Virus genome (UHGV): UHGV-0135135
Direction: 5' to 3' (one strand)
Source: a virus
Length of the DNA: 10,263 nucleotides
Under the pieces are notes generated by a model that was not told the origin of the DNA, searched no databases, and worked only from the letters and a program-made list of their open reading frames with translations. Shown in pieces: positions 1 to 7,693 of this stretch. Position 1 is the first letter of the stretch, and each line of letters starts with the position of its first letter. The translations under genes were made by a program, and so were the position numbers.

Positions 1-304
1 AAGTTAGCGCGCCACGCTCATCATCAAGCCCACCACGTAATCCCGCGATACTGAAAGCCTGACAAGGGGTTCCTCCGACGAGGACATCCGGGGCTTCAAT
101 TTTTCCAGCCCGGATCTTCTTAGTAAGTTTTGTCATGTCGCCAAGGTTGGTTACATGAGGCCAGTGGTGCGCAAGAACAGCAGACGGAAAAGGCTCGATT
201 TCAGCAAACCAAGCCGGACGCATACCCAACGGTTCCCAGGCAATGCTTGCGGCTTCAATTCCACTGCAAACCGAACCATATCGAAGATTAATGCTCTGCT
301 TCAC
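1..304 (-). CDS. DNA (cytosine-5)-methyltransferase, N-terminal part; gene continues past the window start
   Basis: Minus-strand frame is open from the window edge up to 304. Translation reads ...KQSINLRYGSVCSGIEAASIAWEPLGMRPAWFAEIEPFPSAVLAHHWPHVTNLGDMTKLTKKIRAGKIEAPDVLVGGTPCQAFSIAGLRGGLDDERGALT..., with an N-terminal AdoMet-binding-like block (GSVCSGIEAA) and the Pro-Cys catalytic motif of C5 methyltransferases (GGTPCQAFSIAG). Candidate GTG start at 302-304 with GGAGG about 9 nt upstream, overlapping the rdgC stop. Absent from the ORF track because it is truncated by the window edge. Confidence 0.7.
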   Translation of the reverse strand, partial: MKQSINLRYGSVCSGIEAASIAWEPLGMRPAWFAEIEPFPSAVLAHHWPHVTNLGDMTKLTKKIRAGKIEAPDVLVGGTPCQAFSIAGLRGGLDDERGALT

Positions 305-1193
305 CGCCAATGGCCTCCACCAGCAAGCTAAACATCGCGGATAATTCGCTTGTGAACAGAATGAAGTCAGCATCAAATCGCTGGGCAACATCTTCACGGT
401 CGATGTCATCGTTCTGGTCATAGAGATCATCGCAAAACGTCAGTGCTTTGATGCTCATGTCATCGTTTAACCTGAAGGTCGCGCGCTCCTGCCAGTTGAT
501 TGCAACTGTTGTTGCAACTTTTCCGGCTTCAATATGAGTCATTATTTCCTCTGACTGTAGGTCTACTTTCTTGCAACGAACTGCGCCGCCGTCATCGAAC
601 AGAGATTTCAATATGGCTTCTTCGCCTGCTTGAAAGCCTTGAGGAAATGTTGACTTGAACCATTCGGTCATAGTCATTTCGAGCGGTTCTATCGGCGTGA
701 ATGGAATCACCGGAAGGCTGCCAAGTGATTTACGTAAGAGCGCCAGCATTTCTTCTGCTTTTCTGGCGCTGGAAGCTTCTACGAAGACCAGATTGTTGTC
801 GCGATCAATAAGGATTCGCGACAATGATTTGCGAGTGAATGCGCGAGGCAACAAAGAGTGGAGAACTTCATCCTTCAGGGTGTTTTTTTCCGACTTCTTC
901 AGCTTACGGGATTGCTCATTTTCGAGCTTTTCCACTTTTTTCTGCACTTCCTCCTTAATGACATGAGAGGGCAGGAGCTTAATTTCTCGCTGTTGCTGGA
1001 GAAGTAGAAAACCGTGGTATTCATGGATCAGGTTGTCAGCCAGAACCGGCACCCATCCGACTTTTGCCATTTCTTGTGATGCGCATGGAGTGAATGTGAA
1101 TTGGCTTAAGGCATCACTAACGGTGGTTGAGTCCAGTTTAATTTCGCGGGCAAGGCGATAGACGTATATGTTTTTAAATGCGACCAATCTCAT
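288..1193 (-). CDS. rdgC: Recombination-associated protein RdgC homologue
   Basis: 301-aa ORF. Length and conserved blocks (FTPCASQEMAKVGWVP, LKDEVLHSLLPRAF, LLRKSLGSLP, DREDVAQRFDADF, C-terminal GGEAEH) match my recollection of E. coli RdgC, though clearly divergent from the chromosomal copy. ATG start at 1191-1193 has no obvious Shine-Dalgarno. Confidence 0.85.
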   Translation of the reverse strand: MRLVAFKNIYVYRLAREIKLDSTTVSDALSQFTFTPCASQEMAKVGWVPVLADNLIHEYHGFLLLQQQREIKLLPSHVIKEEVQKKVEKLENEQSRKLKKSEKNTLKDEVLHSLLPRAFTRKSLSRILIDRDNNLVFVEASSARKAEEMLALLRKSLGSLPVIPFTPIEPLEMTMTEWFKSTFPQGFQAGEEAILKSLFDDGGAVRCKKVDLQSEEIMTHIEAGKVATTVAINWQERATFRLNDDMSIKALTFCDDLYDQNDDIDREDVAQRFDADFILFTSELSAMFSLLVEAIGGEAEH

Positions 1194-1252: not shown

Positions 1253-1930
1253 CTATCCCTTCACAAAGGAGAAATTGCTCGCTGTTGCTTTTAGCGCGCC
1301 ACCAGCTTTCAGGGCTATATCACCATCAGCGGCGACGGTTACATTGCTGCCTTTTACATTAACGTCTCCATCTGAGGATACATTGGTTTTGCTGCTTGAT
1401 TTGACGTTAACCTCACCTCCAGCATTGAGCACTATATTCGCAGGGCCGATTATGTAAATCTGGCCGGATTCGTTCATCCCTATCCTTGAGCCTGCGGCGG
1501 TGTTTGCTATTTCATAGCCACCGCCAGCCGTTCTGACCTCAAGGATATTGTTTCTGTGAATAACAAAATCTTCAGTCGCCGAAAACTGGGGGCGGGCAGG
1601 AGCACCATCAACTTCTTCTGGCGACCATCCGCTTCCTTGTCCGGAGGCTTCCGGAGGCACATTTGGTACGCCTCCTGGGGCATCCTGCGCCGCGCCAACG
1701 ATTAAAGGTCGACGCGTGTCTATCCTGCCTTTAGCATCCAGATAAGGAAATTCGACCCAGACTAAATCGCCGCTGACTGTAGGTGTAAAGGCGTTACCGA
1801 TAGGCATTTGATACTCTGCCCATGGGAGGTCTTCATCCGGTACACCGTTCCAGTCAGGCAGTATGCGGACCTGCGCTCGCATAAGTCCGGCAGGGTGTTT
1901 GGTCCCTACGATTTGCGCTCTGCGTTTCAC
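1253..1930 (-). CDS. Hypothetical protein with gpV/gp5/VgrG-like OB-fold and Gly-rich beta-helix-like C-terminus (baseplate-spike-like)
   Basis: 225-aa ORF with a GTG start overlapping the stop of the upstream gene (GTGA) and AGGAG about 10 nt upstream. The N-terminal half (QVRILPDW...LPWAEYQMPIGNAFTPTVSGDLVWVEFPYLDAKGRIDTRRPLIVG) follows the pattern I recall for the spike OB-fold domain; the C-terminus has short repeats (NAGGEVNVK, SSDGDVNVKGSNVTV, AADGDIALKAGG). Family call is by motif recollection, not a search. Confidence 0.5.
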   Translation of the reverse strand: MKRRAQIVGTKHPAGLMRAQVRILPDWNGVPDEDLPWAEYQMPIGNAFTPTVSGDLVWVEFPYLDAKGRIDTRRPLIVGAAQDAPGGVPNVPPEASGQGSGWSPEEVDGAPARPQFSATEDFVIHRNNILEVRTAGGGYEIANTAAGSRIGMNESGQIYIIGPANIVLNAGGEVNVKSSSKTNVSSDGDVNVKGSNVTVAADGDIALKAGGALKATASNFSFVKG

Positions 1931-2907
1931 TGGTTGGGTACTCCTAATATCATTCGTGTTGTATAGCCGATCCGGTCCTCAAAATGGGCTACGTTTTTCA
2001 CCAGCAGCTTACGAGGCAACGATTCGTCCAGCTTATTTTCCTGGTCGTAACGATACACGAGGATCTCAATAACCATTCCCGGCGTGATGTCGGGATTACC
2101 TGCGACCTCAATATCCATTTTGGGTTCGAGCGACAATTGCATATTGCGCAGAGTTTCCATATCCGGATCGGATATATGGCGTATTGGGAGTGAGCTATCG
2201 CCATATTCGACATAGCCTTCAGTCATTGAATAGCCGGTAAATCGATACTGAGTATTTGCCGTAACGGCATACTCTTGCTGTATAAGCCTCATTTTTGAAA
2301 TCGTGTATTCCGCCCTGGGGTTGTTCCCTTCATAGGTGAATGATGGTTTAGCTTTCATAAGATCAGCTAATGTATAAAAGTTAAACTGACCACGGCAGGT
2401 CCAGCATAAAGCGCCTTTGTCGCGGGCCATTTCAGATAGCATTTTGGAGGGTTTTTCCCCAGCGGAAAGATGGTACGTACAGCTTCGTTTCAATGCGCTG
2501 GAGGAAACTTTCAGTGTACCGGTATACGTCTTGAAAATGGTATCAGACGTTTTGTTTGTATGCAGGTTAGCCCGTAGAGCGGGGATCTTAAATATCCGAA
2601 CGTCTTCACTGACTGCAATGACCGTAATGACATCACCAGCCAGCACCGCAGATGTTACGAAAAAAGTTGTTTTAAACGTGCCTGCATTGCCTTGTGGATC
2701 ACCCATCTCTGCAACCAGTGCTGCGCCGTATTTTGTTTTCCAGTCATCAATTATGGTGCCGGTAATATCGTGAATTTCCAGTTTCAGCAATGGTGCACGC
2801 AGGTTTGCCTTTTCCACATATACGGCAGTGAATATCCACCCCCTGGGCACTTTGTTTCCGTTGATGGTAACGGACTGTAGAAAGTATTGCTGTAGCTCCT
2901 GGGACAT
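1927..2907 (-). CDS. Hypothetical protein (326 aa), third gene of the coupled four-gene operon
   Basis: Long ORF with ATG at 2905-2907 and GGAG 6 nt upstream. Stop overlaps the downstream GTG start; start lies 4 nt after the upstream stop. No family recognised. Confidence 0.6.
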   Translation of the reverse strand: MSQELQQYFLQSVTINGNKVPRGWIFTAVYVEKANLRAPLLKLEIHDITGTIIDDWKTKYGAALVAEMGDPQGNAGTFKTTFFVTSAVLAGDVITVIAVSEDVRIFKIPALRANLHTNKTSDTIFKTYTGTLKVSSSALKRSCTYHLSAGEKPSKMLSEMARDKGALCWTCRGQFNFYTLADLMKAKPSFTYEGNNPRAEYTISKMRLIQQEYAVTANTQYRFTGYSMTEGYVEYGDSSLPIRHISDPDMETLRNMQLSLEPKMDIEVAGNPDITPGMVIEILVYRYDQENKLDESLPRKLLVKNVAHFEDRIGYTTRMILGVPNQ

Positions 2908-2910
2908 GGC

Positions 2911-3678
2911 TTACTCCATTCTCAGAGAGGTTTCAGTAATAATTCGTTTCGCGTCCAGCTCCCAGGCGGTGATCACGTCTGCTATAACACTAATTGCCGT
3001 TTGTGCAGCATAAATACGCTCTTCCCCAATTGGGGCTGAAACATCAGTAAAACTGATGTCTTTAGCATCCTGAATCGCGCAAATTAGCGGGACGGGGACT
3101 CGTACCAGCGGGGTTGTTGCTTCAAACTGCGTTCCTGCCATCAAGCGAAGGCGTGCTCCAAGCGAATTACACATCAGACTCATGGTCGCCTTATCCGTCG
3201 CCATTAACGTAACGTCATACGTCATATTTGCCTGGGTGTATTCCAGGGCTACTAAAGGCATACCGCTGCCAGGTTCGCAGAAGTGATCACAGCTTTTGCG
3301 GTCTATCTGCTGGTCATTGTTGATATAGCTGATATCCATTGAGCGCGAGATATTAATCAGAGGGAGTGCATCGCGATTAATGTTCGGATTCTCTGGCTTT
3401 CTCCCTTGCCCGGCATTCGCACGGCGAACCGCTTTAAGGAACTCGACCGCATTATCAAAACGGGCAACATAAACACGCTCTGCTGGTGAGCGATTCAGGA
3501 ATGATGCAAAGCGCTTTTCTTCTTTTGCAGGTTCCACCAGCGTTACGTCAGAAAAAATGTCGCTGATTAGCGTAGCAAAAGCGTTATCCACTCTTTCCAG
3601 ACCAGTTGTCTGGAATTTTCCAGTACGCGTTGTCTGCCACTCGCCAATGCGGGACAGTAGAGTTTTGTTAGGTGTCAT
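2911..3678 (-). CDS. Hypothetical protein (255 aa), second gene of the coupled four-gene operon
   Basis: ATG at 3676-3678 overlaps the upstream stop (ATGA), with GGAG 7 nt upstream. No family recognised. Confidence 0.6.
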   Translation of the reverse strand: MTPNKTLLSRIGEWQTTRTGKFQTTGLERVDNAFATLISDIFSDVTLVEPAKEEKRFASFLNRSPAERVYVARFDNAVEFLKAVRRANAGQGRKPENPNINRDALPLINISRSMDISYINNDQQIDRKSCDHFCEPGSGMPLVALEYTQANMTYDVTLMATDKATMSLMCNSLGARLRLMAGTQFEATTPLVRVPVPLICAIQDAKDISFTDVSAPIGEERIYAAQTAISVIADVITAWELDAKRIITETSLRME

Positions 3679-4547
3679 TCGATCACTCCGTTTTGAGTGG
3701 TATCAAAGTTCCTGGCCGGGATGCAGTAATAAAGGGAACCAACGTGTTGTGTTCCGTAGCTGAAGATTCGATGCACGTACCACCAGCGGCGGGCGAGGCC
3801 ATTCGCCATTTCTTCGTTCCATTCCAGGATTGAACCAACAGGTACGTTGTTTGCAGCAATACGCAGGATTAGCACTTCATCAGCAAGACCATCCTGTTCT
3901 CCATCGGCATCAATGGCATGAAACGAATCCCTTCCGTCCGGGTTATCCAGGACGTATACGATTTCCGGTTCCAGATAGGCAAGCTCACGCTGGTTGTTGT
4001 CCAGTAGCGTGAAAGACTCTTCACCTGTTTCATCGTTTACGACGCCATAGGAGCCATCAGCCGGGCGATATAAAAGCGCCTCGAATGCGTCAGGGCTTGA
4101 TTCAATAATGAGCATCCAATCGGCGCGGATCTGGTCGTTGAACGCTTTGTGTCCGTTATATCGGGTTTTAAGCTGCTGGTTTGGTTGTCTGTTAGCGAGC
4201 GATGCCGGTAGGGGGGCGATGTCAGGTTCAATCACTTCCGTAACAGAGTCACCAGCATTATCAGGCCAATTATCATGGCGGCTATCTGCTTCGGTGGCAG
4301 CGTGTTCTTCCAGAATACTGAATGGCCCTGTACTGACCTTCCCATTTTCCGTTGTGCTTCCTTCATTCGCTTCAACCGTCGTTGTCTCTTCTCTCTGCGT
4401 GCTGTCATGTTCTGTTCCCTTTCTCATCAGGCTTGCATCATCAGCAAACCATTCATCAAAACGGCCCATAAGCGTCCTCAAAGGTCGATTTATCAGGTAT
4501 CGAGGGGCATTGTCAGGAGATTGTGATTTCAATTCATATCCCAGCAT
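3675..4547 (-). CDS. Hypothetical, strongly acidic protein (290 aa as drawn), first gene of the four-gene operon
   Basis: Long ORF rich in Asp/Glu. The ATG at 4545-4547 has no Shine-Dalgarno and overlaps an operator-like half-site; an internal ATG at 4467-4469 has a good GAGGA 5 nt upstream and may be the true start (264 aa). No family recognised. Confidence 0.55.
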   Translation of the reverse strand: MLGYELKSQSPDNAPRYLINRPLRTLMGRFDEWFADDASLMRKGTEHDSTQREETTTVEANEGSTTENGKVSTGPFSILEEHAATEADSRHDNWPDNAGDSVTEVIEPDIAPLPASLANRQPNQQLKTRYNGHKAFNDQIRADWMLIIESSPDAFEALLYRPADGSYGVVNDETGEESFTLLDNNQRELAYLEPEIVYVLDNPDGRDSFHAIDADGEQDGLADEVLILRIAANNVPVGSILEWNEEMANGLARRWWYVHRIFSYGTQHVGSLYYCIPARNFDTTQNGVIE

Positions 4548-4560
4548 GGGACTAAAGTGC

Positions 4561-4589
4561 TTTACATTGTCCCATATTGGGACTACTAT
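4561..4589 (+). promoter_or_regulatory. Candidate sigma70 promoter of higB/higA with an operator palindrome GTCCCATATTGGGAC (4569-4583) in the spacer
   Basis: -35-like TTTACA (4561-4566), 17-bp spacer, -10-like TACTAT (4584-4589), then AAGGAA Shine-Dalgarno and ATG at 4614. The 15-bp perfect palindrome fills the spacer, and an extra TGGGAC half-site sits at 4547-4552. Palindromic operators overlapping the promoter are typical of autoregulated TA loci. Confidence 0.45.
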
Positions 4590-4613
4590 ACTTTCAGAGA
4601 GAAGGAATCTGTG

Positions 4614-4916
4614 ATGAAAATAATTTCGGTAAAAACACTAAGGGATTTCTGGGCGAAGAATCCCGATGCAGAACAGCCATTAAAGGCATGGGTTGATGAA
4701 GCAACAAAGGCTGACTGGAAAAATCCGGCTGAGATCAAAGAACAGTACCGGACAGCCAGCATCCTTAAAAACAGGCGCGTGGTGTTCAATATTAAGGGAA
4801 ATGATTACAGGTTAATTGTCGCAATTGCTTATCAGCGAGGATGGATGTTCGTTAAGTTTATTGGAACACATAAGGAATACGATGCCATTGACGCGGATAC
4901 AATAGAACTGGAGTAA
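4614..4916 (+). CDS. higB: HigB-family toxin (YgjN-like mRNA interferase)
   Basis: 100-aa ORF starting at the ATG with AAGGAA 6 nt upstream (the ORF-track start at 4557 is an upstream extension). C-terminal GTHKEYDAID motif and overall layout match my recollection of E. coli HigB (YgjN). Followed 3 nt later by the HTH antitoxin gene. Confidence 0.8.
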   Translation: MKIISVKTLRDFWAKNPDAEQPLKAWVDEATKADWKNPAEIKEQYRTASILKNRRVVFNIKGNDYRLIVAIAYQRGWMFVKFIGTHKEYDAIDADTIELE

Positions 4917-4919
4917 ATC

Positions 4920-5279
4920 ATGAACATTAAACCTATCCGTACAGAACAAGATTATGAGGCCGCACTGCGTGCGGTCGAACCGATGTTCGATAACGAACCG
5001 GAAATGAACACCCCGGAAGGTGATTTCTTTGAGGTCATGTGTCTTCTCATTGAGGAGTACGAGAAAAAACATTACCCAATTGAGCCACCATCACCTATTG
5101 AGGCCATTAAATTCCGTATGGAACAGCAAGGGCTGACCGTGAAGGATCTGGAACCGGCGATTGGTAAGTCAAATCGTGTTTACGAAGTGCTAAATGGAAC
5201 ACGAAATTTAACGTTACCTATGATTCGTCGTTTACATTCCCAGTTTGGCATTCCTCTTGAAAGCCTGGTTGGTGTATGA
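4920..5279 (+). CDS. higA: HigA-family antitoxin (YgjM-like, C-terminal HTH)
   Basis: 119-aa ORF with GGAG 7 nt upstream. The C-terminal block (KSNRVYEVLNGTRNLTLPMIRRLHSQFGIPLESL) parallels the HTH region I recall in E. coli HigA (YgjM). Toxin-first gene order. Confidence 0.8.
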   Translation: MNIKPIRTEQDYEAALRAVEPMFDNEPEMNTPEGDFFEVMCLLIEEYEKKHYPIEPPSPIEAIKFRMEQQGLTVKDLEPAIGKSNRVYEVLNGTRNLTLPMIRRLHSQFGIPLESLVGV

Positions 5280-5283
5280 GTTC

Positions 5284-5310
5284 GGCGGTCTGTATGACCG
5301 CCTTTGTTGT
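5284..5310 (+). terminator. Rho-independent terminator after higA
   Basis: 7-bp GC-rich stem GGCGGTC / GACCGCC with a 5-nt loop, followed by TTTGTTGT, starting 5 nt after the higA stop. No U-tract in the opposite orientation. Confidence 0.6.
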
Positions 5311-5313
5311 CAA

Positions 5314-6510
5314 TCAAGAACCTTTCTTCACGTACTCCATAAACATTTTTTCAGCTTGCCCAGGTGACGTTCCTGCCATGACCAGCGCATCAATGAACGC
5401 CTGCTTCTTCAGTGCGAACTGATCGGCAAGGCGTTGCTGAAGCTCCTTGTTTTTCTGTTTCTCACGTTGCAAGGCCGCTTCTTTTGCTGCCGCTCGTTTT
5501 TTCTGTGCGTCTGACAACTTTCTGGCCCTGGTCAGTTGGTCACGTAGCTTGTCGATCTTGCCGTTGTCCTTTGCCAGTTTTGAGCTTAAAGCGGCCTGGC
5601 GTTTCTGATAGAGCTTCCATTCACGTTTAGCTGCCTCAACATTCGTTTTGCTGCTACGGTTTCGATTGAACGCCTTCTCGTCTTCTTTTGTGAAGTGTTT
5701 TGTCGAGCGGCGGCGATCGTCACCAAAGGCAACTTGCGTTGCAGCTTTTTGCAGGGCGCGAGCAATACTCATCTGCCAACTGGCAGACTGTAGTCGTGTC
5801 ATTGAGTGGATCACATGTTTACAGGCGACGCCTTGCAGCTTAGGGTTGCGAACTTTTGGATAGGCGTATTCTTTTGGCGGGGCCAGGGCAAAGTTACCTG
5901 CAGTGGCGATGTAGCGATACCAGTATTGATGGCGACCGCAGTCACAGTCGAAAGACACTCGCCCGGCACACAGTGATTTTGTGACTTTCAGGGCTGATTT
6001 ATCGTCTTCTGCGATGTCATCGATCATCTGATCCCATTCTTCAAAACGTACCCGGACAATGTGGTGCTGGTGAACGGATATATCGGACGCTTCCACGCGG
6101 ATATTAATCACATTGTGACGAAGAGATACGGGCGTAGCTCTTTTGATACCAGAACCGTCGTCTACGGCGTTATTTGCTCGCTTAATATCGATAGCCTGGC
6201 TGGACGCTACCAGTTGTGCGTATGTAATGCCAGCCGTCTTGCTGTCGTATTTTTCGCGTGCTTTGCTTCGCAGCTTTTCGAAGCCTTTCAGATCGTCACG
6301 CGTAAAGAACGTGCCGCCTTTCTTTTTCCCCAGCTTAAGAATGTCGTCGGCTGATTTATTCCTAAGCCTGCCCGGCGTGAGTGTCCTGTGCGCCTGGCGG
6401 CGTTTGCGGTTTTGCTCTTTCCTGATGAGTTCAAATACGCGTGTGAAATCCTTAGAGGACAGGCCGTCAGTGATATATCGCCCGTCCTGATTTTTCAGGA
6501 AGTCAGGCAT
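5314..6510 (-). CDS. Hypothetical protein (398 aa) with a SWIM-like Cys/His cluster and a basic coiled-coil C-terminus
   Basis: Long ORF whose start overlaps the upstream 109-aa gene by 8 nt. Central FDCDCGRHQ...GVACKHVIHS resembles a CxC...CxH SWIM-type zinc finger. The C-terminal ~90 aa are K/R/A/Q/E-rich with heptad-like periodicity (AAAKEAALQREKQKNKELQQRLADQ). No family recognised. Confidence 0.6.
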   Translation of the reverse strand: MPDFLKNQDGRYITDGLSSKDFTRVFELIRKEQNRKRRQAHRTLTPGRLRNKSADDILKLGKKKGGTFFTRDDLKGFEKLRSKAREKYDSKTAGITYAQLVASSQAIDIKRANNAVDDGSGIKRATPVSLRHNVINIRVEASDISVHQHHIVRVRFEEWDQMIDDIAEDDKSALKVTKSLCAGRVSFDCDCGRHQYWYRYIATAGNFALAPPKEYAYPKVRNPKLQGVACKHVIHSMTRLQSASWQMSIARALQKAATQVAFGDDRRRSTKHFTKEDEKAFNRNRSSKTNVEAAKREWKLYQKRQAALSSKLAKDNGKIDKLRDQLTRARKLSDAQKKRAAAKEAALQREKQKNKELQQRLADQFALKKQAFIDALVMAGTSPGQAEKMFMEYVKKGS

Positions 6511-6832
6511 TTTCTATCTCCGGTGCCGAGCCAGCGTAATCGCGGATCTTGTTTCTTAGCCATGCTGCGTCAGGAAGAGTTAACGTTGTCCCTACCGGCA
6601 TTTCTTCCATTTCTGACTCATGGCCCACCAGCACACGAAATACCCAGCGCAAATCAGCGTTGCCATAGGCGCGATAGGCCGCCAGGTCTGAGCGATAAAC
6701 CTCATCAATTTTTATCGTGTACTGGAAATTATCGGAGTGATACTCCGATACCCGCTTGATCATCTCCTGATGGAATAGTGCGCGCAGCACATCGTCTTCA
6801 ATGCATCGATCGTCGAGCCTGCTGTAACTCAT
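6503..6832 (-). CDS. Hypothetical protein (109 aa), translationally coupled to the 398-aa gene
   Basis: ATG at 6830-6832 with GAGGAA 6 nt upstream; 3' end overlaps the start of the 398-aa gene. Segment DEVYRSDLAAYRAYGNADLRWVFRVLVGHESEMEEMPVGTTLTLPD loosely resembles LysM / phage tail-protein-X-like patterning; this is weak. Confidence 0.55.
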   Translation of the reverse strand: MSYSRLDDRCIEDDVLRALFHQEMIKRVSEYHSDNFQYTIKIDEVYRSDLAAYRAYGNADLRWVFRVLVGHESEMEEMPVGTTLTLPDAAWLRNKIRDYAGSAPEIENA

Positions 6833-6924
6833 AACAGTTCCTCACAGTCATAACCTGGGGGGAACTGTATGCAGGGTGTGAAATGCGAGAAAGCAGCGCC
6901 ACCTGGCTTGGTGACGCTGTGAAA

Positions 6925-7206
6925 TTATGCGTGGAAAAATAATGGACGGATGTTTGGGCGAGTGGTTTGCGAAGCAACCCAAAGCTCATACTGGGATTGC
7001 ATACCGGTCCACATTTCGGCACTGGTTCCAAGAGCGGACTCCAGACGAAGTGCCATATCAGCAGAAATACCTGCTTTTTCGTTCAGAATTCGGGAAAGCG
7101 CCGTGCGAGTAATGCCTAATGCAGCAGCGGCGTCTGTGACTGACATGTCTCCCAAATATTCACGAAGAACCGCGCCAGGATGCGCGGGATTATGCATACG
7201 ACTCAT
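6925..7206 (-). CDS. higA: HigA-family antitoxin (COG3093-like HTH)
   Basis: Start taken at the ATG giving [18 protein letters not shown]..., with GAGGA 5 nt upstream (ORF track extends to a TTG at 7218). The MHNPAHPG N-terminus and HTH region ([38 protein letters not shown]) match my recollection of HigA antidote proteins. Confidence 0.8.
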
Positions 7207-7214
7207 AGTGTTCC

Positions 7215-7496
7215 TCAATGATAATCCTGATAGTCAACTAGAATTGCGTCTTCTCCTTCAAATCGGAAGGTAAGTCGCCAGTTACCGTTTACCGATATTG
7301 CCCAGTGACCTTTAAGGTCCGCCCCCTTTAGTGGGTGCAATTCCCATCCAGGCGCAGACATATCGTCCGGGCGTTTAGCTGTATTAAGAGCAGTCAATTG
7401 AATGCGTAGCTTAACCGCATGTTTGGCCTGAATGCCTGCGGTTGAACCTGTCTTGAAAAAGCGTTCAAGCCCTTTATGGCGAAATGACTTAATCAA
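7215..7496 (-). CDS. higB: HigB-family toxin (RelE/ParE superfamily)
   Basis: 93-aa product (L)[13 protein letters not shown]...[21 protein letters not shown] closely parallels the classical HigB toxin as I recall it. Probable TTG start at 7494-7496; the ORF-track extension to 7559 also begins with TTG and is probably leader. Toxin upstream of antitoxin, as is usual for hig loci. Confidence 0.8.
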
Positions 7497-7521: not shown

Positions 7522-7533
7522 TGTGTATACACA
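7522..7533. promoter_or_regulatory. 12-bp perfect palindrome TGTGTATACACA in the leader of the second higB/higA
   Basis: Read directly from the sequence, about 25 nt upstream of the proposed higB start on the minus strand. Plausible HigA operator; function not verifiable here. Confidence 0.35.
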
Positions 7534-7693
7534 CTACACACAGAGAGAGCAAAATGCAAGCACTATCCGTATAGACAGAGTTTCTTCGCCGCCCTGAATT
7601 TATTGACTGTCAACAAGTGACTTTCATTAATCTTTATGCGGGGGCCAGCTTCATTTGCTGGCATTAGATTAAAAATTAAACGGAGTGAATGAC

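Follow-up and report, generated by a model that had tools for sequence, protein, structure and literature searches.

Two inverted repeats at the higBA promoter of a D6-like phage-plasmid as probable autoregulatory operators of a mobile toxin-antitoxin cassette

The stretch of DNA analyzed here (the window, 10,263 nt) belongs to a D6-like, P1-related phage-plasmid; it shares 96.8% identity with NZ_LR890273, an E. coli plasmid, and 81% with phage D6. Its minus strand encodes homologues of P1 genes 26, 25, 7, 24, 6, and 5 as well as of hrdC/rdgC, and a toxin-antitoxin (TA) cassette, higBA, is located on the plus strand between genes 25 and 7 (Table 1). In P1, genes 26-25-7-24-6-5 are contiguous and form one late tail operon under the control of the late promoter LP26. 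The genes flanking the cassette are D6/P1 homologues in the identical order; while the P1 operon is uninterrupted, antisense cargo whose content varies between plasmids lies here between genes 25 and 7. The cassette occupied this place, in the opposite orientation, in every variant seen. To judge from homology and gene order, what a sequence-only reading of this DNA had taken for a divergent four-gene operon is the distal part (7-24-6-5) of a P1-type late tail operon into which reverse-oriented cargo has been inserted.

TABLE 1 Predicted genes and regulatory elements of the window
Feature	Position	Strand	Basis or description
hrdC/rdgC homologue	288-1193	-	Profile and D6/P1 homology
P1 gene 5 homologue	1253-1930	-	Profile and D6/P1 homology
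P1 gene 6 homologue	1927-2907	-	Profile and D6/P1 homology
P1 gene 24 homologue	2911-3678	-	Profile and D6/P1 homology
P1 tail gene 7 homologue	3675-4469	-	First gene past the cassette; PHROG tail protein, 1.8e-109, full coverage
O1, putative operator	4539-4551		TCCCA-gca-TGGGA, TCCCAgcaTGGGA, centre 4545, exact match
higBA -35 hexamer	4561-4566	+	TTTACA; TTG kept at equal operator offset in family alignment
O2, putative operator	4569-4583		GTCCCA-tat-TGGGAC, GTCCCATATTGGGAC, centre 4576, about -20
higBA -10 hexamer	4584-4589	+	TACTAT; TAnnnT directly after TGGGAC in family consensus
Predicted short higB leader	4596-4613	+	Shine-Dalgarno AAGGA at 4602-4606, direct reading
higB	4614-4916	+	100-aa RelE-fold toxin, PF09907
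higA	4920-5279	+	119-aa antitoxin; N-terminal helical domain, C-terminal HTH at residues 63-115 (Pfam HTH_3)
Intrinsic terminator of higBA	5284-5309	+	GGCGGTC-tgtat-GACCGCC, then TTTGTTG
P1 gene 25 homologue	5314-6510	-	Profile and D6/P1 homology
P1 gene 26 homologue	6503-6832	-	Profile and D6/P1 homology

The start codon of gene 7 is relevant to the suggestion that a TGGGAC half-site overlaps the first ATG of these tail genes. The overlapped ATG at 4547 (complement of 4545-4547) is the first ATG of the longest open reading frame only. A downstream ATG at 4469 is preceded by GAGGA 5 nt upstream, is equivalent to the ATG picked by PGAP in LR890273, and aligns with the annotated start of D6 gp69 (orf69, "similar to P1 gene 7"); the 264-aa product encoded from it spans the full length of the PHROG tail-protein profile. 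Because the Shine-Dalgarno sequence, PGAP, the D6 annotation, and the full profile coverage agree, ATG 4469 is taken as the start of gene 7. The extension of the reading frame from 4470 to 4547 enters DNA that is not common to D6. The distance between the gene 7 start codon and the nearer of the two repeats described below (O1) is 70 nt.

The higBA genes are arranged in toxin-first order, with higA following higB directly after a gap of 3 nt. HigB matches the Pfam family HigB_toxin (PF09907) with an E value of 3.3e-34 and 117.4 bits (cutoff 27) and the E. coli/Shigella HigB structures 5YCL_B/5IFG_A with an E value of 1e-7. Its ATG is preceded by AAGGA, and its homologues align from residue 1. 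HigA matches the HigA chains 5IFG_B/5YCL_A with an E value of 2e-8 over residues 6 to 112 (phmmer); its homologues number thousands, several of which are called HigA by their sources, and none of the NCBIfam models scored above threshold for this protein. In a K-12-like HigBA architecture, HigB would be toxic and would be neutralized by HigA. The higBA terminator, when read on the minus strand, has no U tract: the RNA fold there consists of the hairpin followed by GAACUCAUACACC. An Rfam search retrieved no RNA family in the window. A separate module composed of a PF05015-type HigB and a HigA with N-terminal HTH is present in the window at 6925-7496.

The plus strand between the divergent reading frames reads ...ATATCCCAGCATGGGACTAAAGTGCTTTACATTGTCCCATATTGGGACTACTATACTTTCAGAGAGAAGGAATCTGTGATG (direct reading) and contains two full inverted repeats of the form TCCCA-N3-TGGGA, at 4539-4551 (O1) and at 4570-4582 (O2). 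Upstream of higB, a sigma-70-like promoter composed of TTTACA, a 17-bp spacer, and TACTAT was recognized, which is the only plus-strand promoter-like site in the region; taken alone, such a match is at chance level (2 found versus 1.7 expected). From its position we infer that higB transcription starts at about 4596, which places the center of O1 at about -51. The two repeats flank the -35 box, from which the end of O1 is separated by 9 bp, and the earlier statement that a repeat occupies the spacer of the candidate higB promoter holds: O2 fills the 17-bp spacer and abuts the -10 box. It had also been described as a perfect palindrome. The element is present, with arms of 6 bp (GTCCCA/TGGGAC), but the TAT at its center is non-symmetric. 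Likewise, the third half-site noted at that time, TGGGAC at 4547-4552, is real, but it is the right arm of the full repeat O1, the left arm of which lay beyond the segment considered. The centers of O1 and O2 are 31 bp apart, and a 25-nt direct repeat encloses both. A TAAAGT follows O1, and O1 was considered as a second promoter; this candidate was rejected, as a -35 box is missing and relatives have not kept the hexamer.

The frequency of the repeat in the window was compared with chance expectation. The motif TCCCANNNTGGGA had exactly two matches, which are O1 and O2; at up to one mismatch there were three matches versus 0.29 expected, a number reached in none of 200 shuffles. In contrast, the bare hexamer TGGGAC was not enriched in the window (4 matches versus 3.4 expected).

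To cover the relatives of HigA, one genome per species was scanned, yielding 80 loci that encode HigA homologues with 53 to 92% identity, and the 58 distinct loci with a full-length higB immediately upstream of higA were used. They span Enterobacterales, Pasteurellaceae, Chromatiales, Halomonadaceae, and Burkholderiales (gamma- and betaproteobacteria) and have varied flanks. Within 120 nt before higB, the exact motif was found at 45 of the 58 loci and the motif with at most one mismatch at 56; the other two have TCCCG-N3-CGGGA, in which both arms are altered. The remaining 240,941 nt of these loci, used as background, contained no exact and two one-mismatch matches. Alignment of 59 sites on the dyad resulted in the consensus TTG(-35)...tAGTCCCAwwwTGGGACTAnnnT, whose core positions are invariant or nearly so. 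The dyad center is located 20 to 21 nt before the higB ATG at 50 of the 58 loci; both plasmid-borne cassettes have the Shine-Dalgarno leader, which most chromosomal relatives lack. A second site 22 to 31 bp upstream of the proximal one was detected at 15 loci of the 58, mostly in Enterobacterales. Because an O1-type site is absent from most distant relatives, the role of O1 is less certain than that of O2. The putative operator consensus, tAGTCCCAwwwTGGGACTAnnnT, of this widespread HigA subfamily is apparently undescribed; a literature search combining the operator sequence with antitoxin terms returned nothing relevant to the consensus or to a leaderless higB mRNA.

The HigBA system of E. coli K-12 and Shigella (YgjN-YgjM; 5IFG, 5YCL) resembles the present one in its toxin-first order, its PF09907 HigB, and the unusual layout of HigA, with an N-terminal dimerization and toxin-binding domain and a C-terminal HTH; a single HigA-repressed promoter, as predicted here, serves higBA of K-12 (PMC2814082). 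In the K-12 upstream region, a pair of inverted repeats spaced 29 bp apart surrounds the -10 box, so that both systems have two promoter repeats separated by about 29 to 31 bp. The relationship is nevertheless distant (E about 1e-8), and the K-12 HigA has 138 aa compared to 119 aa here. In K-12 the repeats enclose the -10 box and the start site, whereas here it is the -35 box that they enclose, and the half-sites are TTGCCA-N5-TGGCAA-like in K-12 but TCCCA-N3-TGGGA in the present case; half-sites thus differ between HigA subfamilies, as expected of cognate operators. Furthermore, higBA of K-12 is chromosomal, whereas the present cassette is phage-plasmid cargo, which resembles a moron in carrying its own promoter and terminator. 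A two-operator logic is also found in the HigBA-like SehAB system of Salmonella, where SehB binds two palindromes at -35 and -10 (PMC7160566). With 46% identity to K-12 HigA, SehB is a member of the K-12 subgroup, and it is the layout of the sites that is alike. For HigBA of the Proteus vulgaris plasmid Rts1, Schureck et al. reportedly described in 2019 inverted-repeat operators O1 and O2 that overlap promoter elements and are each bound by a HigA dimer. The Rts1 proteins differ in family, with a PF05015 HigB and a HigA carrying an N-terminal HTH.

The element is symmetric and fixed in the promoter spacer, and the operon encodes a single DNA-binding product, an HTH dimer; this combination argues for an autoregulatory operator. 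Very probably, the conserved dyad is the operator of HigA and serves autoregulation throughout the family. The earlier idea that the repeat is an operator of higBA has thus gained support from its occurrence at 56 of 58 loci against two background matches in 241 kb and from the autorepression of K-12 HigBA; it is now stronger than first stated, since both sites are complete. The motif and its geometry, its conservation throughout the family, its linkage to higBA, and the homology of the encoded proteins to an autoregulated HigBA point to binding by HigA and to repression of higBA. Specifically, a HigA dimer, alone or as HigB-(HigA)2-HigB, would bind each TCCCA-N3-TGGGA dyad via the C-terminal HTH domains. 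Bound O2 would cover the spacer between the -35 and -10 boxes and bound O1 the DNA just upstream of -35, so that RNA polymerase would be excluded and higBA repressed. With O1 and O2 approximately three helical turns apart, the two sites would lie on the same face of the DNA, which makes cooperativity plausible. Loss of the labile antitoxin would derepress higBA, as in classical type II TA autoregulation. The region is, in short, an ordinary type II TA autoregulatory switch.

Comparison with related elements was used to define the DNA to which the repeats belong. D6 can be aligned without interruption from gene 7 to approximately position 4529, where the alignment breaks off, to the left of O1. 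At that place, D6 and CP085065 encode instead a RelE/ParE-type toxin with a TIGR02607-type HigA; this pair has another inverted repeat (GCGCAC...GTGCGC) beside its own -10 box, and no TCCCA-N3-TGGGA was found at the same place in either element. Among complete E. coli genomes, the region occurs only on plasmids of approximately 90 kb. The full higBA cassette is present in 19 of 95 E. coli D6-like plasmids, whereas the other 76 have the higA part only, without the operators, and yet have kept the tail genes. Conversely, in the P1-like plasmid pMTY1886 a higBA cassette with 87% identity adjoins c1 and the integrase; it conserves O1, the -35 box, O2, the -10 box, and the Shine-Dalgarno leader, and its similarity to the window begins about 3 to 5 nt to the left of O1. 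Tail genes without the operators are therefore found in D6, CP085065, and 76 of the 95 plasmids, and operators without these tail genes in pMTY1886 and at the 58 chromosomal loci. Judged by this distribution, O1 and O2 belong to cassette-specific DNA and not to the phage tail genes, and the predicted cassette is made up of O1, promoter, O2, Shine-Dalgarno leader, higB, higA, and terminator (roughly 4530-5310), with O1 forming its left edge. The junction of genes 25 and 7 in the D6-like tail operon appears to be a hot spot for cargo, where different TA cassettes replace one another. In the complete sequence of LR890273 (92.8 kb), the only exact operator sites are the two at the higBA promoter, and thus nothing suggests that HigA controls a wider regulon on this element; the four one-mismatch sites, about the number expected by chance, are changed at invariant positions.

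The transcription of genes 7-24-6-5 was addressed by searching for late promoters. The P1 late promoter consensus, taken from the four annotated P1 promoters LPlyz, LPdar, LP26, and LPpmgL, consists of AAGTnACTT (the 9-bp -22 box), a 4-nt gap, and the -10 sequence TAnnnT. With up to three mismatches allowed, the minus-strand segment 4470-4613 contained no P1-type late promoter. The sole perfect P1-type late promoter of the window is located at 7615-7633 on the plus strand and is conserved in D6 and LR890273. In the whole of LR890273 there are only one or two P1-type late boxes, and the D6-like consensus may be another; a de novo search of this relative for 9-bp palindromes followed by TAnnnT revealed no recurrent motif. 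Two weaker matches were rejected. A three-mismatch match antisense inside higB (4807-4789) is at chance level, with 28 such matches versus 25.9 expected, and the plus-strand sequence AAGTGCTTT (4555-4563), which agrees with the LPlyz box at 8 of 9 positions, has no -10 box after it and is not conserved in pMTY1886. Besides the TATAGT considered below, the minus strand has a second sigma-70 candidate, CTGACA-16-GATAAA (4516-4489), which scored 9 of 12 under relaxed scoring and, although it lies in the segment shared with D6, is not conserved there. Three weak terminator-like sites were found on the minus strand inside the cassette. A published P1 CRISPRi data set was uninformative on an internal promoter with respect to genes 25 and 26, as its knockdowns failed to score known essential genes.

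Most likely, genes 7-24-6-5 are reached by late antisense read-through across the cassette or from another promoter, to judge from the sequence features described. Read-through is the simplest route because no P1-type late promoter was found between higB and gene 7 and because the terminator lacks a U tract on the minus strand. A sigma-70 or D6-type promoter for gene 7 may lie near the operators. An organization of tail-gene expression around O1 and O2 is not supported by the comparative data.

If read-through takes place, the late antisense transcript would traverse higA and higB and meet HigA-bound O2 and O1, together with polymerases at the higB promoter, before reaching gene 7. Such incidental interference would shift the ratio of proximal (26, 25) to distal (7, 24, 6, 5) tail proteins with the TA state, and late antisense transcription would silence higBA. 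The constant position and opposite orientation of the cassette between genes 25 and 7, the terminator structure, the lack of a P1-type late promoter between higB and gene 7, and the single six-gene operon of P1 are all in line with it. We nevertheless regard it as unlikely: the read-through route is itself inferred, the weak terminator-like sites inside the cassette face the antisense transcript, and most D6-like plasmids have a different cassette at this place, which would make any interference a side effect and not a conserved design. It is quite improbable that HigA or HigBA at O1/O2, together with the higB-promoter polymerases, act as a tunable roadblock on late transcription, which would tie the supply of distal tail and baseplate proteins to the TA state, while late antisense transcription would stop higBA expression, releasing HigB once cells are committed to lysis.

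According to the sequence-only reading, the operators are shared by divergent promoters, and the minus-strand TATAGT (complement of 4585-4590) would drive the tail genes, so that HigA would repress them and their expression would follow the TA state. The -10-like TATAGT does exist and matches the -10 consensus at 5 of 6 positions. With its best -35 partner, ATCACA, it scored 9 of 12 under relaxed scoring; O1 and O2 would sit just downstream of the resulting start, and the scans gave no other clear candidate for a gene 7 promoter. As a promoter it is weak, however, having a 19-bp spacer, longer than the 16 to 18 bp required, and no TG extension, and it is omitted by a standard scan; moreover, TATAGT is the mirror reading, shifted by one base, of the plus-strand -10 box. 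The ATG said to overlap a half-site is not the start of gene 7, which begins 70 nt from O1. D6 and 76 of the 95 E. coli plasmids hold genes 7-24-6-5 without the operators or this -10 box, whereas pMTY1886 and the 58 chromosomal loci have the operators without such a divergent gene, and P1-type tail genes are late and Lpa-dependent. As tail genes and operators are not co-inherited, shared control of this kind is highly doubtful. Finally, that the repeats are not HigA sites but a recombination or insertion site, a site for a host regulator, or a product of chance is barely credible, for although the left border of the cassette falls on O1, the proximal site keeps a constant place in the promoter spacer (a position expected of a repressor and not of a recombination site) at 56 of 58 loci from two proteobacterial classes with unrelated flanks, HigA is the only co-occurring DNA-binding protein, and chance is excluded by the shuffle test and by the background count of the 58 loci.

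Overall, O1 and O2 are in all likelihood autoregulatory operators of a self-contained, mobile higBA cassette, and the data do not support a designed control of the tail genes. The value of the analysis lies in this corrected picture, in which the region between the divergent genes appears as the autoregulatory region of a mobile cassette and not as a regulatory link between TA state and tail genes. If interference by the cassette did occur, the element would provide a simple system for studying how cargo within a late operon affects virion production, and a true roadblock would mean that an addiction module and virion assembly functionally influence one another in a phage-plasmid. Beyond this element, the consensus can be used to predict where HigA binds in many proteobacterial genomes, in which higB mRNAs are expected to be leaderless for the most part.

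The higBA cassette of the window, which lies between the minus-strand tail genes 25 and 7, also occurs with 87% identity in the P1-like plasmid pMTY1886 (L086; NZ_CP128972, 20653-26399), where it occupies a different site, flanked by a small ORF near c1 and by a site-specific integrase gene. Because the same cassette is found at another location, the cassette and its operators move as one unit. In the draft genome of Pasteurellaceae bacterium Macca, the higBA locus is present eight times in near-identical form (L043 and L045-L051), spread over five contigs, three of which hold two copies each; this multiplicity within a single draft genome suggests that the locus there rides on a multicopy repeated element.

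Among the 58 chromosomal relatives (within L006-L085), the −10 hexamer ends 6 to 7 nt before the higB ATG in 50, a spacing which implies that the higB mRNAs of these relatives would be leaderless. An extra leader of approximately 16 to 18 nt with a Shine-Dalgarno sequence is present in both phage-plasmid cassettes (window 4590-4613 and L086) and in two Pasteurellaceae loci. The features located in this part of the analysis are compiled in the table.

Coordinates of features in the window and of the replaced region in related loci
Feature	Location	Strand	Remarks
TAATCATTT-CCCT-TAATAT	4789-4807	-	antisense within higB; would point towards gene 7
TCCCAGTTTGGCA	5238-5250	+	operator-like, one mismatch; 3′ part of higA
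Terminator-like hairpin	~6890-6915		after the 6925-7496 module
TIGR02607 HigA	6925-7218	-	partner of the PF05015 HigB-like toxin
PF05015 HigB-like toxin	7215-7496	-	TTG start
AAGTGACTT-TCAT-TAATCT	7615-7633	+	perfect P1-type late-promoter-like element
Replaced region	D6 (L002) 5811-6938; plasmid locus L004 3611-4739		

The operator-like site TCCCAGTTTGGCA falls in the higA codons for the conserved HSQFGI motif, and it is probably not functional, since its mismatch falls where 58 of 59 operators have a G. The antisense element TAATCATTT-CCCT-TAATAT resembles the P1 late promoter LPpmgL, with eight of nine box positions matched and a good −10 hexamer; such a match is at chance level, as the scan of the whole window returned 28 hits with 25.9 expected. 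The element AAGTGACTT-TCAT-TAATCT is kept in the window, in D6 (L002 9393-9411), and in two plasmids (L001 9143-9161 and L004 7205-7223). Its palindromic box AAGTGACTT could also serve the minus strand, for which P1 provides a model in LP26 and LPpmgL, which use one common box; no TAnnnT follows the AAGTGACTT box on the minus strand.

A second higBA module, unrelated to that at 4614-5279, is encoded at 6925-7496 between gene 26 and the late-promoter-like box and is oriented like the tail genes. The perfect 12-bp palindrome TGTGTATACACA (7522-7533), located approximately 26 nt upstream of the toxin start, is a likely operator of this module, which is absent from the corresponding position in LR890273 and D6.

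D6 and 76 of 95 E. coli D6-like plasmids have a RelE/ParE-type toxin and a TIGR02607-type HigA in place of higB and both operators; the window-type higA persists there as an orphan that immediately follows a terminator-like hairpin. The two loci searched, of 12 kb and 7.7 kb, contain no cognate operator for this orphan. The orphan higA may be a remnant or may have an anti-addiction function. Between higA and gene 25, LR890273 (L001 6739-7476) and D6 carry a 245-residue hypothetical ORF (D6 orf73 homologue), which the window lacks at 5304-5313. At least three different gene contents occur at the 25/7 junction, a variable hot spot for cargo.
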